From Candidatus Nanohaloarchaea archaeon (GTDB lineage: Archaea > Nanohalarchaeota > Nanosalinia > Nanosalinales > Nanosalinaceae), in the NCBI GenBank assembly GCA_046497485.1, contig JAWOFP010000056.1, forward strand, positions 1-38,061: DNA of 38,061 bases, given 5' to 3'. Of this stretch, positions 676 through 15,803 are shown one piece after another. A program made the position numbers and the translations under genes. Each line of letters opens with the position of its first letter. Within the stretch, counting starts at the first letter, position 1. A model generated the notes under the pieces. The model searched no databases, was not told the origin of the DNA, and saw nothing but the letters and a program-made list of their open reading frames with translations.

Positions 676-2079
676 ATGGTAATGATAGGCCTGGAAACAC
701 ATGTCCAGTTAGATACTAAATCCAAGCTTTTCTGCGGATGCAGGAACAGTAAAGACGAGGAACCGAACGAAAATGTCTGTGAGACCTGTCTTGGTATGCC
801 AGGCTCAAAGCCTAGAATCAACGGAAAAGTATTGAAACAGGCCTTGAAGACTTCTCTTGCTCTTGAATGTGATGTGAATGAGGATTACTTTTTCTCCCGT
901 AAAACATATTTCTACCCTGACATGTCGAAAAATTATCAGATAACTCAGTTTGAGCTTCCTGTTGGTGAAAAGGGAGAGTTTGAAGTTAAAGTAGAGGATG
1001 ACAAAATTAATGTAGGGATTACTCGGCTACATATTGAGGAAGATCCCGCCAAGCTAGTGCATGAAGGAGGATCTGTCAAAAAATCAGATTATACTAAAGT
1101 AGATTACAATAGAGCAGGCACACCTTTACTTGAAATCGTTACAGACCCTGATTTTGAGACTCCTGAACAAGCTAGAGCTTATCTTCAGCAGTTGAGCCAG
1201 ATGCTTGAATACCTAGGAATCTATGATCCAGAATCAGATTTTGCGATCAAGAGTGACGCCAACATTTCTATTGAAGGCGGAGAGAGAATTGAGGTCAAGA
1301 ACATTACTGGAACTTCAGATATTGAGAAGGCCTTAAACTATGAGATAAGCCGTCAAAAGCAGATGAAGAAAAGGGGTAAAGAAATTACTCAGGAGACCCG
1401 AGGATTCAATCCTGGAATGGGCTCAACTGAGAAGATGAGAGAAAAAGAGACTGAGGAAGACTATGGATATATCTTCGACCCTGATTTAACCAGGCAGAGA
1501 AATAATGATAATAAGATTAAACAGGCCTCAAAAGAGATACCAGAGCTTCCAAAGGAGAAGCTTGAGCGATACATGAGCAAAGGCCTGAAACCGAAGATGG
1601 CGGAAGCCCTTGTCTCAGATCCTGAGATTGCGGATTTATTTGAGATGCTGGAGTCTGATTTCGATTCAGTTATGACTGCTTCTCTCTTAACCGGAGACCT
1701 GAAGAAAGTACTGAACTACCACGAAATCAGGTTCAGTGAGTCAGGCCTCAAAAAGAAATGGTTTAAGCACTTACTAAAATTAGTTGAAGAAGAAAAGATA
1801 AGCGATAGAAACGCTGAGGAGGCATTGCGTGAAGCAGTCGATAACCCTAGACCATTCAAGAAGATTGTTGAGGATGAAGATCTTCTGAAGTCTGGTGAAG
1901 ATGAGACTGCCCAAGTAGTGGAGCAAGTGATTGAAGAGGAAGACGATGCTGTAGAGGACTACCATGACGGCGATGAAGGAGCATTGAACTATCTGGTAGG
2001 CCAAGTTATGTCTACAAGCGGCGGTAAGGCAGATCCTAAAAACGCCCGAGAACTTTTGAAAGAACAGCTTGAAAATTAG
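676..2079 (+). CDS. gatB: Asp-tRNA(Asn)/Glu-tRNA(Gln) amidotransferase subunit B
   Basis: IGLETHVQL, RKTYFYPD, NYQITQ, HIEEDPAK, DYNRAGTPLLEIVT, and a C-terminal YqeY-like tail (LVGQVM...GKADP). Confidence 0.97.
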   Translation: MVMIGLETHVQLDTKSKLFCGCRNSKDEEPNENVCETCLGMPGSKPRINGKVLKQALKTSLALECDVNEDYFFSRKTYFYPDMSKNYQITQFELPVGEKGEFEVKVEDDKINVGITRLHIEEDPAKLVHEGGSVKKSDYTKVDYNRAGTPLLEIVTDPDFETPEQARAYLQQLSQMLEYLGIYDPESDFAIKSDANISIEGGERIEVKNITGTSDIEKALNYEISRQKQMKKRGKEITQETRGFNPGMGSTEKMREKETEEDYGYIFDPDLTRQRNNDNKIKQASKEIPELPKEKLERYMSKGLKPKMAEALVSDPEIADLFEMLESDFDSVMTASLLTGDLKKVLNYHEIRFSESGLKKKWFKHLLKLVEEEKISDRNAEEALREAVDNPRPFKKIVEDEDLLKSGEDETAQVVEQVIEEEDDAVEDYHDGDEGALNYLVGQVMSTSGGKADPKNARELLKEQLEN

Positions 2080-2084
2080 ATAAT

Positions 2085-2420
2085 ATGAAGTTCGAGCCTA
2101 AAGAATCAAACTTAGTAGATAAAAACACCGAAATCACTTCTCTATTCGATAAGGAAGACGCTAATTTTGACGCAGTAATCTCTAAGGTAGATGGTTATCA
2201 TCCTGAAGAAGGAGAAAAGGTAATTAATGAGGAAAGTGAGCGTGCTTACTATGTCTTGGAAGGAGAAGGCACCATATATGTTCGTGACAATGATTTCTCT
2301 GTAAGCTCCGGAGATCTAATATTTATTGAGAAAGGGAAAGGCCATGCACTGGAAGGAGATATCAGAACTTTAGTAATTACTAGTCCTCCTTTCAACCCTG
2401 AAAATGAGAGGATAGAATGA
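2085..2420 (+). CDS. cupin-domain protein
   Basis: YYVLEGEG...GDLIFIEKGKGH cupin motifs; ATGA overlap with the next gene. Confidence 0.8.
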   Translation: MKFEPKESNLVDKNTEITSLFDKEDANFDAVISKVDGYHPEEGEKVINEESERAYYVLEGEGTIYVRDNDFSVSSGDLIFIEKGKGHALEGDIRTLVITSPPFNPENERIE

Positions 2421-3328
2421 AAGCACACAATTTTTTGGAGGGAAATGGCCTTGATTTTGAGGTAGTTGAACAGGATAATCCGACTAAGGACTGTGATGAC
2501 GCAGCTCAGGAACGAGGAGTAGAAACTTCTCAGATTGTCAAGAGTTTGATAGTTGAGAGACATAAAGAGAAAGGAGTGAAAAAAGGTGATTTGATTCATG
2601 TCTTACTGCCTGGAGACCGAGAAATTAGCGAGAAAAAGTTTGGGGAACATCATCTAATCTCTCCAGAAAAATCCAAGGAACTTACGGGATTTGAATCAGG
2701 CACGGTACATCCATTCTCCACAGAAATTGAACATGTTATAGATTACAGAGTACTGGAAAACGAGGAAGTATCATTTACAGTCGGAGAACAGCTTAAAGGA
2801 GTAATAATAAACTCAAAAGAATTCAGGAAAGGCCTAGAAAAATCAAATTTTGATTATGAAATCAAGGATATCTCCCTAACTAAACAGGAAGATATTGATC
2901 TTCTTGAATCTGAAAGCCTGGACAAGGAGGATGCAATGTTTGTCGCGGATAAAGGCCTAGCACCACTCTATTTAGAGCTAAATTATGATTCTGAGGATGT
3001 AATTAAGTCTTTTCAGGAGCTTCTACGCCGCGACATAAGACCTGAGAAAGAGATAGTTACTGAAATAATTGAAGCTTCAGAGAACCTGAATCATTTGCAG
3101 AAACTAGTTGAAACTTATGCTGAGACAGGCAAGATTGAAGATTCAGGAAGCTTTGAATTAGAGGAAGTTATAGATGAGATATTGGATGAAAATTCTGAGG
3201 CCTTAGAAGATTTGAAGGAGGGAAAGCAGTCAGTTGAAAACTTTATAATCGGACAGGTTATGCAGAGGACATCTGGTAGAGCCAGGCCTGAAAGAGTTAA
3301 GGAGGTTCTAAATAATGAGTTCAGATGA
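2417..3328 (+). CDS. YbaK/ProX-family aminoacyl-tRNA deacylase domain fused to GatB/YqeY C-terminal tRNA-binding domain
   Basis: N-terminal ~150 aa has QIVKSLIV (conserved Lys) and TGFESGTVHPF. C-terminal NFIIGQVMQRTSGRARP aligns by eye with the GatB tail NYLVGQVMSTSGGKADP. Confidence 0.8.
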   Translation: MKAHNFLEGNGLDFEVVEQDNPTKDCDDAAQERGVETSQIVKSLIVERHKEKGVKKGDLIHVLLPGDREISEKKFGEHHLISPEKSKELTGFESGTVHPFSTEIEHVIDYRVLENEEVSFTVGEQLKGVIINSKEFRKGLEKSNFDYEIKDISLTKQEDIDLLESESLDKEDAMFVADKGLAPLYLELNYDSEDVIKSFQELLRRDIRPEKEIVTEIIEASENLNHLQKLVETYAETGKIEDSGSFELEEVIDEILDENSEALEDLKEGKQSVENFIIGQVMQRTSGRARPERVKEVLNNEFR

Positions 3329-4004
3329 GTTAGTAGATGAAAAAGTTGATGAATTAAAAAATAGAGATAATGTTAGAGCAGTAGCTATTGTGGGTAGTTA
3401 TGCTCGTGAGCCAGACATGAACCACAATGATATAGATATCTATGTGATTGTAGAAGGTGACTGGAGAAGAAGAGAAACTTTTGAAGAAGATGGACAAGTT
3501 TGGGAGATTTTCTATAATTCGATGAACTGGATAAAGTCGTACTTTGATGAAGAGAAATGGTATATGTATCATTGGATTAAAAATAGAGATGTACGCTATG
3601 ATCCTGAAAACCTATTTAATGAGTTAGAAGAGCTTAGTGAAGAGTTTAAACGAGAACAATTTGATATTGATGCCGAAAGAATTAGTTATGCAGTATGGGA
3701 TTTTATTCAAGATATTGAGTCAAAGGATGTGGCACAAAAGAGATTCATGATGTACCATGCATTTGATTATATTTTGAAAAAGCACTATTTAGTCTGTGAA
3801 CAACCACTAGTTAAGGAAAACTATAGACTAGAAAAGCTTAAAGATTTTGACGGGTATATGTACAAGCTTTCTCAAGAATTTCTTAATTCTTCTAGTACAG
3901 TAGAAAAGCGTAGAAAATTAGATGATATAACTAAACACTTCTGTAAGAAACTTGGTAAAGAACCAAATCCTAGATGGAAAACAGATAAAGAAAAATTAAA
4001 TTAG
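3315..4004 (+). CDS. Pol-beta superfamily nucleotidyltransferase with C-terminal helical domain
   Basis: GSYAR...DIDIYV motif; overlaps the upstream gene by 14 nt. Confidence 0.75.
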   Translation: MSSDELVDEKVDELKNRDNVRAVAIVGSYAREPDMNHNDIDIYVIVEGDWRRRETFEEDGQVWEIFYNSMNWIKSYFDEEKWYMYHWIKNRDVRYDPENLFNELEELSEEFKREQFDIDAERISYAVWDFIQDIESKDVAQKRFMMYHAFDYILKKHYLVCEQPLVKENYRLEKLKDFDGYMYKLSQEFLNSSSTVEKRRKLDDITKHFCKKLGKEPNPRWKTDKEKLN

Positions 4005-7359: not shown

Positions 7360-8946
7360 ATGGTCTTTCTTGTAACTAATAGCGACCTTGATGAAGAAAG
7401 TGTTGAAGGCCTAAATCAGCAGGTTACTGAAGAATTCAGTATATACTACGATAATAATATAGAAATAACCGAATTAAATGATAACATCTGTGTTTTTGAT
7501 GGTCTACTGATTAACGAGAGGAAAATAGAAGAAATTTTAAGTGAGGAAGTCGAAAGTTTAGAGAATTTATTCCTCAAGCTAGATGGTTATTTTACTGCTT
7601 TAATTATAGATAATCAAGAGATAAAAATATTTAGAGATATTTTCGGATCCAGGCCAGTCTACTATTCAAAAGATGACGATTCTTTATTCATATCGTCTAA
7701 TATAAGGTCTATAATACATTCAATGCCTATTGAGCCTGATTTATGCAAGTCTGTGGCCGCGGATTATCTTGCTAACGGAATGGCAGATCACCGTAGAAAA
7801 ACCTTTTTTGACGGAGTAAACCGCCTCAAACCCAAGGAGAAACTAATTGTCAAAAAAGGCGAGGTCAATATTAAAGAAGCCTCATATTCTCTAACAAGCC
7901 ATTCGAGAGATTTAAGGTCTACAGTAGAGAAAAATATTCAAAATCTTCAACCTGAAGAAGAGAAATACTACTGTCCTGTGAGTGGAGGGCTTGACTCAAC
8001 AATAACGGCTTCGAAATGCGGTGACGCAGAAAATATCTTCATTTCGTTTAAACAAGGTACGGGTGATAGCAAATATCTTTCGTCCGTTCAGAAGGAATAT
8101 AATCTAGATATTGAGAAGATAGAAGTCAGGCCTATTGATCTGATCAACGAAGTAAAACAAACTATTGAAACACAGGAAGAACCTACAGCTTATCCTGCTG
8201 TACCGGCCCAATCGCTGCTCTACAAGAAAATAGATGATGGCAGTAAAATAATCTCTGGTACGGGGGCAGATGAACTTTTCTATGGTTATACATGGTTTCT
8301 ACCCTTCTATATCTCCGATAAATTCAAGGAAGGAAGCTATATAGAATTTATACGGCTTTTGATAAATTACAGGAAAAGTCTTGGTAAAAGCCATCTCAAA
8401 GGAATAAAGGAAATACTTTTAGAAGGTTCTACAACAGTTTCAGCTAAGGCTAGTGACCTCGTAAAAATGGATGCCAAATCAGTTAAGATTGAAAATTTGG
8501 ATGAAGCAAGAAAGAAACATTTGGAAAAATTCTACGCCCCTCATATGCTTAAATCCACTCAAAAAAACTCAAACCATCATAATGTAGATGTAAGACCTGT
8601 GTTTTTATCTAAAAAACTGCTAGAGCTTTCAGAACAAATAGATTTTAGGGAGAACTTTGAGAAAGGTCTGAAAAAATACTCGCTTCGAAAAGAGTTTAGA
8701 GAAGATATTCCAGAAAAAATCTTTAAAAGGAAAGTTAAGACAGGTTTTGTCCATTCAGGAGAGGATTTATTTACAGATAAGGTTAAGCGAAAGTTCTACA
8801 AAATCTTTAATTCTAAATCGTTCCAAAGAAGAGATTTAATTAAGGGTAAGAGAACCCTAAGATTGCTAGAGAACGATAAATTAAGTTTTGAAATAGCCTA
8901 CAGATTTTACAGTTACGAAATATGGATGAGAGAATTCATAGATTAA
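7360..8946 (+). CDS. asparagine synthetase B-like ATP pyrophosphatase / amide ligase lacking the N-terminal Cys
   Basis: RDIFGSRPVYY, PP-loop SGGLDS, SGTGADELFYGY, RKVKTGF; AT-rich. Confidence 0.8.
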   Translation: MVFLVTNSDLDEESVEGLNQQVTEEFSIYYDNNIEITELNDNICVFDGLLINERKIEEILSEEVESLENLFLKLDGYFTALIIDNQEIKIFRDIFGSRPVYYSKDDDSLFISSNIRSIIHSMPIEPDLCKSVAADYLANGMADHRRKTFFDGVNRLKPKEKLIVKKGEVNIKEASYSLTSHSRDLRSTVEKNIQNLQPEEEKYYCPVSGGLDSTITASKCGDAENIFISFKQGTGDSKYLSSVQKEYNLDIEKIEVRPIDLINEVKQTIETQEEPTAYPAVPAQSLLYKKIDDGSKIISGTGADELFYGYTWFLPFYISDKFKEGSYIEFIRLLINYRKSLGKSHLKGIKEILLEGSTTVSAKASDLVKMDAKSVKIENLDEARKKHLEKFYAPHMLKSTQKNSNHHNVDVRPVFLSKKLLELSEQIDFRENFEKGLKKYSLRKEFREDIPEKIFKRKVKTGFVHSGEDLFTDKVKRKFYKIFNSKSFQRRDLIKGKRTLRLLENDKLSFEIAYRFYSYEIWMREFID

Positions 8947-8964: not shown

Positions 8965-9110
8965 TGGACCCTTGGGGATTTGAACCCCAGGCCTCCTGCT
9001 ATTCCGCTATTTTCCGAAAGCAGTTAAACAATGCGAATGCCGCATTTGATGATCGAACTTTCAGAAGTTCGTTGCGAAGCAGGCGTTCTGCCGGACTGAA
9101 CTAAGAGCCC
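8965..9110 (-). tRNA. tRNA-Ala(CGC) with 72-nt intron at 37/38 (intron 9001-9072)
   Basis: Acceptor stem GGGCTCT/AGGGTCC with the G3:U70 Ala determinant; anticodon stem CCTGC/GCAGG, loop TT-CGC-A; BHB central helix TTCG/CGGA; T-loop TTCAAAT. Confidence 0.9.
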
Positions 9111-15071: not shown

Positions 15072-15803
15072 TTAATACTTTCTTTTAGGTTTTCTAGGAT
15101 TAATATCTTGGTTAAATCTGTTTACATCATTCCCAGTTATCCTCAGCTTAAACTTTATACTATGATGTTCTTTACCTGGTTTTTCTTCAAATTTATGAGA
15201 TTTTATATCAAGATCATTAAGCACATCATATAAATCATCTCTGAGATATTTACTAGCTGAACTAAATACATATCTTTTGTGTTCAGGACGCCGATAACCA
15301 TCTGTGTCTATTAAACCTCTTGCAAAACCTCTTTTAAAATCCTTTGAACAATTCTTCCCCAATCTAATAGAATATGTCTTATTTTCTGTCCAGTCTAGGC
15401 ATCTATCAAATAAGTTATACAGCGTTTTAGAATTGTATAATAGTTCAACCTTACTTTCCCTATTATCGCAGATAAAAGGAGATTTCCCTAATTTCTCTTT
15501 TAGAAACCTTTCTAATATCTCCCAATATTCTTCCTTATAATTCAAATGAAATTTTATTTTATAATTTCCATTCTTAGTGTAATGATAACTACCGTCACCT
15601 GCAAAAATACCGCACAACTCACCCCTGATCTCTTCGTCTTCAGGTATAACTATTTTATTTTCCTTCTGCTTTTGTCCAACTTCCTTCCTGAAATGATAAT
15701 AAACCGTGGATTTCGGAAGATCCAAAATTTCTTTTATTTGATTTACTGATTCTCCTTCTCTTACAAGCGTTTTTATTTGAGAAATTTCAATCTCTGAAGC
15801 CAT
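15072..15803 (-). CDS. free-standing two-motif LAGLIDADG homing endonuclease with N-terminal HTH
   Basis: LCGIFAGDG and FARGLIDTDG motifs; HTH-like SVNQIKEILDLPKSTVYYH; basic and AT-rich unlike neighbours; ATG 15803 preferred. Confidence 0.85.
   Translation of the reverse strand: MASEIEISQIKTLVREGESVNQIKEILDLPKSTVYYHFRKEVGQKQKENKIVIPEDEEIRGELCGIFAGDGSYHYTKNGNYKIKFHLNYKEEYWEILERFLKEKLGKSPFICDNRESKVELLYNSKTLYNLFDRCLDWTENKTYSIRLGKNCSKDFKRGFARGLIDTDGYRRPEHKRYVFSSASKYLRDDLYDVLNDLDIKSHKFEEKPGKEHHSIKFKLRITGNDVNRFNQDINPRKPKRKY

Follow-up and report, generated by a model that had tools for sequence, protein, structure and literature searches.

Next to gatB, the nanohaloarchaeal DNA analysed here carries a gene in which a YbaK-type editing domain is joined to the C-terminal part of GatB, which raises the question of the role that such a protein would play in the handling of aminoacyl-tRNAs. 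The window, i.e. the whole stretch that was analysed, is the 38,061-nucleotide contig JAWOFP010000056.1 of a Candidatus Nanohaloarchaea archaeon (assembly GCA_046497485.1, hereafter G000, 97% complete). An initial annotation of this DNA had proposed a deacylase carrying its own tRNA-selection module, possibly clearing the Asp-tRNA(Asn) or Glu-tRNA(Gln) intermediates of the transamidation pathway. The motifs and both C-terminal stretches that it quoted are present letter for letter in a single open frame at 2417-3328 (+), which encodes a protein of 303 aa (P0001).

Architecture of the fusion protein

Pfam detected both domains in the one protein, tRNA_edit (PF04073) at residues 21-138 (E 4e-15, 56 bits, cut-off 25.5) and GatB_Yqey at residues 212-300 (E 7e-17, above cut-off), and the AlphaFold2 model, built with 106 aligned homologues, is confident, with a mean pLDDT of 92.8 and a pTM of 0.82. 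The joining of a YbaK-type domain and a GatB tail, as initially read, therefore stands. An artefact or a chance fusion was rejected, as 194 homologues were found and both Pfam domains occur in all of the 120 listed. Pfam, AlphaFold2, Foldseek and structure comparison together divide the gene into an INS/YbaK-fold editing domain, a GatB helical domain and a GatB tail.

The editing domain (residues 1-153; 2417-2875, +), identified by Pfam, carries K42 and the loop G95-T-V-H98-P99. Residues 1-155 of the model superpose on 2cx5_A with a Z of 17.3 (143 aligned, rmsd 2.0), the Z values over the INS-family structures 2cx5, 1wdv, 1dbx, 2dxa and 1vjf range from 14.7 to 17.3 (16.1 for 1dbx_A), and the Foldseek match of the model to the INS/YbaK fold has an E of 3e-10. 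K42 aligns with the Lys of E. coli YbaK, YeaK and INS, a residue which, in the portion of PMC10164551 available, is strictly conserved across the INS superfamily, is required for deacylation and also has a binding role. The catalytic signature is intact, K42 and the G95 and P99 of the GXXXP loop being invariant in 106/106 aligned homologues, as are R33, H61 and H98. The protein has the fold, the A76-positioning Lys and the GXXXP loop by which the INS superfamily is recognized, with deacylation as its putative activity.

The signature of this editing clade consists of C26, R33, K42, H61, H98 and GxVHP. The His of the loop (H98) is present in 32/32 clade members; at the same position, 60 stand-alone matches most commonly have Ser (18) or Pro (17), His not being among these two. 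C26, R33 and K42 align with the C, R and K of E. coli YeaK (ProXp-ST1), the loop reading GTVHP against GAIPP in YeaK; the fusion clade does not group with YeaK, whose tree branch is long. At a threshold of 90%, conserved columns number 54/146 in the editing domain, 6/87 in the helical part and 11/62 in the tail, so that conservation is highest in the editing domain and lowest in the helical part. Source databases label the homologues YbaK/EbsC. The YbaK label, which the initial annotation also used, does not hold, considering that TIGR00011 gives 30.6 bits against a cut-off of 153.25, that the fusion domains form a clade of their own in both trees described below and that the protein has two Pfam domains; the current YbaK annotations of these fusion genes are likely wrong.

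The C-terminal half corresponds to GatB. The fusion protein shows 31% identity over 87 aa (BLASTP, E 1e-10) with the GatB encoded in the window (676-2079, +; 467 aa; TIGR00133 483 bits, cut-off 315), and profile-profile comparison of the C-half with 32 GatB sequences gave probabilities of 99.6-99.7. Residues 154-303 of the model superpose on GatB 295-474 of 9a6e_A (Z 8.8, 150 aligned, rmsd 3.8) and on GatB 301-480 of 3al0_B (Z 7.9, 150 aligned, rmsd 3.5), Z values that are middling for the helical domain, and the C-terminus thus matches the GatB/YqeY fold. The likeness to GatB first noticed was right for the tail and too short in extent, since the whole helical-plus-tail module (154-303) matches. 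Profile-profile and structure comparison identify residues 154-240 (2876-3136, +) as a diverged GatB helical domain, which is followed by the GatB-type, YqeY-like tail (residues 241-303; 3137-3328, +). In the passages of PMC2811023 available, S. aureus GatB consists of a cradle (1-294), a helical domain (295-407) and a tail (412-475); considering these limits and the start of the model alignment at GatB 295, the junction of the fusion lies at the cradle boundary. In the fusion protein, Pfam gave no match to the cradle domain PF02934 at E 0.1, and there is therefore no kinase or amidation site. The fusion protein is a GatB whose catalytic cradle is swapped for an editing domain.

The tail was scored against two profiles, one made with 48 GatB tails of Nanohaloarchaea and the other with 16 GatE tails. 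It is GatB-type, not GatE-type: 130/130 fusion tails scored higher on the GatB-tail profile, with medians of 75 vs 17 bits. The hydrophobic pocket of the S. aureus GatB tail, given in the same portion of PMC2811023 as V449, M452, G457, A459 and P461 (by our own count the Val is residue 448), corresponds in an ungapped alignment to I278, M282, G287, A289 and P291 of the fusion. Across 23 pairs of fusion and GatB, M282 and G287 are kept in 23/23 and A289 in 22/23; this conservation of the elbow-pocket residues agrees with the putative tRNA-selection module proposed initially. In 18/23 fusions, G or A replaces the pocket Pro (291). Position 270 is K or R in 18/23 fusions and D or E in 20/23 GatBs of the same genomes; it is taken here as part of the Lys-rich motif of PMC2811023, which the passages available describe without residue numbers. 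Recent duplication of the end of the neighbouring gatB, or gene conversion, is unsupported, as the fusion tail is 49% identical to the GatB of its own genome vs 47% to that of other genomes (own higher in 14/23) and the C-halves are placed apart from the clade of Nanohaloarchaeal GatBs (SH-aLRT 91 in a quick tree with long branches).

Gene context, distribution and related fusions

In the window, gatB and the fusion gene are separated by an optional insert, a 111-aa cupin detected by Pfam (2085-2420, +), with a gap of 5 nt between gatB and the cupin and an overlap of 4 nt between the cupin and the fusion gene. From this spacing we infer co-transcription of the fusion gene with gatB. A promoter and terminator scan, with models of bacterial type only, gave results near shuffle level. 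Downstream lies a 229-aa Pol-beta-type nucleotidyltransferase-like ORF (3315-4004, +), which, by Pfam and the loci of relatives, is the usual neighbour with or without the fusion. Among the loci of relatives (L008-L089), this ORF is of ~230 aa in some, and in many it is cut down to a piece of 80-100 aa that corresponds to its C-terminal helical half only; two such pieces have no Pfam match. Elsewhere, the window encodes a stand-alone protein of 243 aa that has a LAGLIDADG-like domain at its C-terminus (15072-15803, -; E 6e-14), an AsnB-like glutamine amidotransferase flanked by two tRNA genes (7360-8946, +) and a tRNA-Ala(CGC) (8965-9110, -) with a 72-nt intron, its boundaries being as called by ARAGORN.

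We surveyed 70 genomes of the phylum for the fusion and its linkage to gatB. The gene is shared by relatives: it was found at full length in 32/70 genomes (17/28 of the high-quality ones), with a partial match in 2, and lies within 0.5 kb of gatB in 30/32. Of the gatB operon claimed initially, the adjoining gatB is thus upheld; a gatCAB operon is not present, gatA and gatC of G000 being on contig C32, apart from gatB. The fusion directly follows gatB at 21 of the 32 loci (14 overlapping) and is separated from it by one small ORF at 9, this ORF being cupin-like only in some; the remaining two loci are one at a contig edge and one (G005) unlinked to gatB.

The fusion is missing from 11/28 high-quality genomes, three of which are single-contig and 10 of which still have gatB. 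No remnant of it was found at 26 gatB loci of genomes without the fusion; at 12 of these, gatB is followed by the same nucleotidyltransferase-like ORF, directly or past one insert, and the others have a different gene order or a contig end. Presence and absence occur inside the same genera. Considering this patchiness, i.e. no remnants, absence from single-contig genomes and variation within genera, the gene is dispensable, and since the gene order around gatB is syntenic with or without the fusion, the linkage carries less weight. In the 42 genomes that are 85% or more complete, none of the genes for glutamine synthetase, DTD1 and DTD2 tracked the presence of the fusion. Six genomes without the fusion (G013, G015, G019, G020, G063 and G064), from only two lineages, carry a PF00152 frame about as long as a bacterial-type AspRS (~600 aa), and two more (G001, G002), also without it, have a GatE-sized match, no GatB-sized match and extra PF00152 matches. 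A record titled Colwellia polaris (L044) shows gatB and the fusion gene in the same order as in Nanohaloarchaea and is probably mistitled.

A profile search was run over 1.84 billion representatives, from which the best 150 matches were taken and 57 were scanned with Pfam. Further two-domain members among these best 150 include P0129, P0131 and P0135, and some sequences have long N-terminal leaders; P0129 and P0329 are less acidic orthologues of the fusion protein. The fusion clade also has eukaryote-like members, P0140, P0139, P0146, P0160, P0297, P0330 and P0147. P0140 is Guillardia theta GUITHDRAFT_111965, which has 185 aa and, as the gene is modelled, the editing domain only; of the six further eukaryote-like rows, five fall into one group with it (SH-aLRT 100). 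Four eukaryote-like members have N-terminal leaders with LRGG-like motifs, which we take to be typical of cryptophyte proteins targeted to the plastid or periplastid space, and their tails have degenerated further (14-30 bits). The ESM Atlas holds one cluster with this architecture, possibly the fusion protein's own, and a metagenome scan for non-Nanohaloarchaeal fusion loci gave one match, of 22 residues.

By this search and a follow-up to it, the editing domain was found on full-length archaeal GatB in 21 clusters (P0138 and P0298-P0317; related P0142 and P0374). In 14 of them it sits within the cradle, behind the first Cys pair, and in 7 at the N-terminus; Diapherotrites is the named source of one cluster member and of one related fragment. 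A full-length GatB with an INS-fold domain is possibly a cis-editing amidotransferase. Additionally, the profile search yielded a fragment of AspRS with the editing domain at its C-terminus, and AspRS with a C-terminal, YeaK-like editing domain accounts for 38/38 matches (P0331-P0368) among 183 candidates of 567-2000 aa, the named sources being Dojkabacteria, Patescibacteria and WS6 of the CPR, and Woesearchaeota. Eight of these fusions were scanned for AspRS type; six are bacterial-type and two aspartate--tRNA(Asn) ligase, the domain thus occurring on AspRS of the bacterial and of the archaeal type. RDHG, the His of which we take to be the mark of a non-discriminating AspRS, is present in 35/38. 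To our knowledge, AspRS is not usually considered to bear an editing domain. The occurrence of related domains on complete GatB and on AspRS strengthens the connection with the Asn route beyond what was visible to the initial annotation; domain content, gene context and these related fusions all tie the protein to Asn transamidation.

Two quick IQ-TREE phylogenies of 114 and 52 rows, with SH-aLRT support only, included E. coli YbaK, YeaK and INS and the host's stand-alone YbaK-like gene as INS-superfamily references. The fusion editing domains form one clade in both (SH-aLRT 100 and 95, respectively), apart from all these references. The GatB-fused editing domains form a separate clade (SH-aLRT 96), which stands apart from the fusion clade in the first tree and is its sister, at 84, in the second. 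An origin of the fusion independent of the Diapherotrites GatB fusions is not upheld, as the two quick trees disagree; one simple history would be an N-terminal fusion of editing domain and GatB, then loss of the cradle. Rather than joining the fusion clade, the AspRS-fused editing domains lie in loose association with the Ser/Thr deacylase YeaK of E. coli, and they may therefore be no evidence on the substrate of the fusion protein.

Host pathway and proposed function

The host genome has a non-discriminating AspRS together with GatCAB and no AsnRS, its one PF00152 match being a contig-truncated AspRS whose best models, over cut-off, are aspartate--tRNA(Asn) ligase. It also has gatD and gatE; gatE is found on two contig ends, C12 and C14 (frames of 570 aa and 297 aa), probably through an assembly break. 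With GatDE in the genome and a GatB-type tail in 130/130 fusions, Glu-tRNA(Gln), which the initial annotation had included among the possible substrates, is unlikely. Both tRNA(Asn) and tRNA(Asp) of the host have G1-C72, C2-G71 and G73; their variable loops are of 5 nt and 4 nt, respectively, and the D-loop is longer in tRNA(Asp). According to the available parts of PMC2811023 and PMC2330236, archaeal GatCAB is an Asp-AdT that reads the D-loop and the 5-nt vs 4-nt variable loop, not the first pair. For the tRNA-Asp at G000:C51:42462-42567, ARAGORN placed a 31-nt intron at 40/41, the boundaries being as called. Of the 42 phylum genomes with a completeness of 85% or more, 3 have a match for glutamine synthetase and none has one for DTD1 or DTD2, the archaeal controls for DTD2 being positive in 4/4. 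A second YbaK-like gene of the host, the stand-alone gene of the trees, encodes 168 aa on contig C2 upstream of tyrS (L004:1393-1899, -); it scores below the YbaK cut-off, and similar matches occur in most genomes of the phylum.

We propose, at a probability of about 45%, that the fusion protein is a free-standing deacylase that would take L-Asp, in trans, off Asp-tRNA(Asn) left unconverted by GatCAB. The host AspRS would make Asp-tRNA(Asp) and also Asp-tRNA(Asn); since these symbionts are mostly without glutamine synthetase, the amide donor may run short, and Asp-tRNA(Asn) would accumulate. By docking on the tRNA(Asn) elbow, the tail would exclude tRNA(Asp) with its larger D-loop and shorter variable loop. 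K42 would guide the CCA end into the pocket for hydrolysis of the ester, with a residue specific to the clade (H98, R33 or H61) perhaps binding the carboxylate. An elbow reader would be needed because the amino acid and the acceptor end are both alike in Asp-tRNA(Asn) and Asp-tRNA(Asp); the need of an editing domain for a tRNA reader is greatest where the amino acid gives no clue to the error, as in this pair, and the fusion retains the module with which GatB makes the choice. Hydrolysis would beat GatCAB only without amide donor. A precedent for the clearing of a transamidation intermediate is H. pylori GluRS2, which, in the passages of PMC3241645 available, hydrolyses excess Glu-tRNA(Gln).

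Several observations speak against L-Asp. The substrates of characterised INS members in the portions of the literature available are Ala, Cys, Ser, Thr, Gly, Pro, aminobutyrate and fluorothreonine, i.e. small and neutral, none acidic; the gene is dispensable and the synteny holds regardless of the fusion; and, as judged from the alignments, the pocket Pro is mostly lost and the helical domain diverged. In addition, a domain that removes L-Asp would, when fused in cis to GatB or AspRS, act on the substrate or product of its own partner and risk a futile cycle. The YqeY domain of Deinococcus GlnRS is an affinity enhancer in the parts of PMC1865053 available, and so shows binding help, not selection.

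No futile cycle would arise if a putative deacylase directed to tRNA(Asn) by the same GatB-type tail removed D-Asp, a small residue (Ser, Thr, Ala or Gly) or a dead-end GatB product that jams GatCAB. AspRS charges D-Asp, and with DTD1 and DTD2 found in none of the 42 genomes of the phylum, D-aminoacyl-tRNAs would be without their usual remover; the alignment of C26, R33 and K42 with YeaK also agrees with a substrate other than L-Asp. However, D-Asp or Ser would land on tRNA(Asp) too, so that selectivity of the arm for tRNA(Asn) would be a disadvantage, and DTD is absent from fusion-bearing and fusion-less genomes alike. We consider a substrate of this kind the chief rival to L-Asp, possible and somewhat unlikely. 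The GatB arm could also be a general affinity booster, for instance in molar salt, for an enzyme with a classical substrate, Ala- or Cys-tRNA(Pro) or Ser/Thr-tRNAs. The ProRS of the host is archaeal-type (TIGR00408 over cut-off) and has no PF04073 match, appended affinity domains are known from plant ProXp-ala as well as Deinococcus YqeY in the portions of the literature available, and the nearest solved structure, 2cx5, is a ProXp-x in the available text of a review (PMC11295145). Such a booster is nevertheless improbable, as it leaves the GatB-type tail, the gatB link and the whole-GatB fusions unexplained, the host has the second, stand-alone YbaK-like gene beside tyrS, and the clade has members outside Nanohaloarchaeota, e.g. 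in Guillardia theta.

A non-hydrolytic carrier, which would grip Asp-tRNA(Asn) at both ends, shield it from aEF1A and pass it to GatCAB, would likewise run no futile cycle; it would draw on the binding role of the conserved Lys described in part of the literature, and the overlap with gatB in 14/32 genomes suggests matched amounts. Yet the tails of the fusion and of GatB would be rivals for one elbow, and the complete catalytic loop and the pocket show no variation, which makes a carrier very doubtful. The putative Asp-tRNA(Asn) deacylase is thus the reading that we prefer. As a tentative generalization, the INS-fold domains of DPANN and CPR may serve in dedicated proofreading of transamidation, by putative hydrolysis of Asp-tRNA(Asn), being placed on AspRS, on or inside GatB, or free with a GatB elbow reader, the last also in a cryptophyte alga.

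Relation to known systems and significance

The fusion has in common with the INS superfamily the fold, the invariant Lys and the GXXXP loop. It differs by the added GatB helical-plus-tail module of 150 aa, members other than INS being single-domain in the available text of the 2024 review, and by the separate clade of its editing domains (SH-aLRT 100 and 95) with GxVHP. With the GatB of archaeal GatCAB it shares the helical and tail domains and the tail pocket, whereas it is without the cradle and its helical domain is diverged. Archaeal ThrRS-ed, in the portions of PMC11295145 and PMC8762117 available, is of the same design, a free editing domain with a tRNA-selecting module taken from the pathway enzyme; unlike the fusion, it has a DTD-like fold, an anticodon-binding domain and Ser-tRNA(Thr) as substrate. 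Deinococcus GlnRS-YqeY and the N-terminal domain of yeast GlnRS (3tl4) also reuse a GatB-like helical/tail module in cis, but there the partner is a synthetase and not a hydrolase fold; the Foldseek match of the fusion model to 3tl4 has a TM of 0.51 by target, but an E of 0.45. H. pylori GluRS2, as far as the text available describes it, clears an excess transamidation intermediate, as proposed for the fusion, but is the synthetase itself and no dedicated deacylase.

This architecture of a known enzyme superfamily is real and conserved, and apparently undescribed. No description of the fusion was found by title or abstract opening; the clade may figure as an unnamed cluster in the chapter defining ProXp-7 to -9 (Kuzmishin Nagy 2020). 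Neither GatB nor Asp-tRNA occurs in the available text of PMC11295145. The literature drawn on further includes, in part, PMC12449066, PMC3367201, PMC11415595, PMC9437257 and PMC11286415.

According to the available part of PMC2330236, the barrier that keeps Asp-tRNA(Asn) off the ribosome in vivo is unclear, discrimination by the elongation factor and channelling having been proposed. If the Asp-tRNA(Asn) reading is true, a dedicated deacylase would be a third barrier besides these two. Such an enzyme would be without precedent both as an INS-family member acting on an acidic residue and as a deacylase dedicated to a transamidation intermediate, and INS chemistry would extend to acidic or D-residues, with the specificity of editing set by a borrowed elbow reader. 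The fusion protein is small and soluble, which makes the deacylase idea directly testable. Whatever the substrate, the INS fusions to GatB and AspRS represent uncharted quality control in reduced-genome symbionts.
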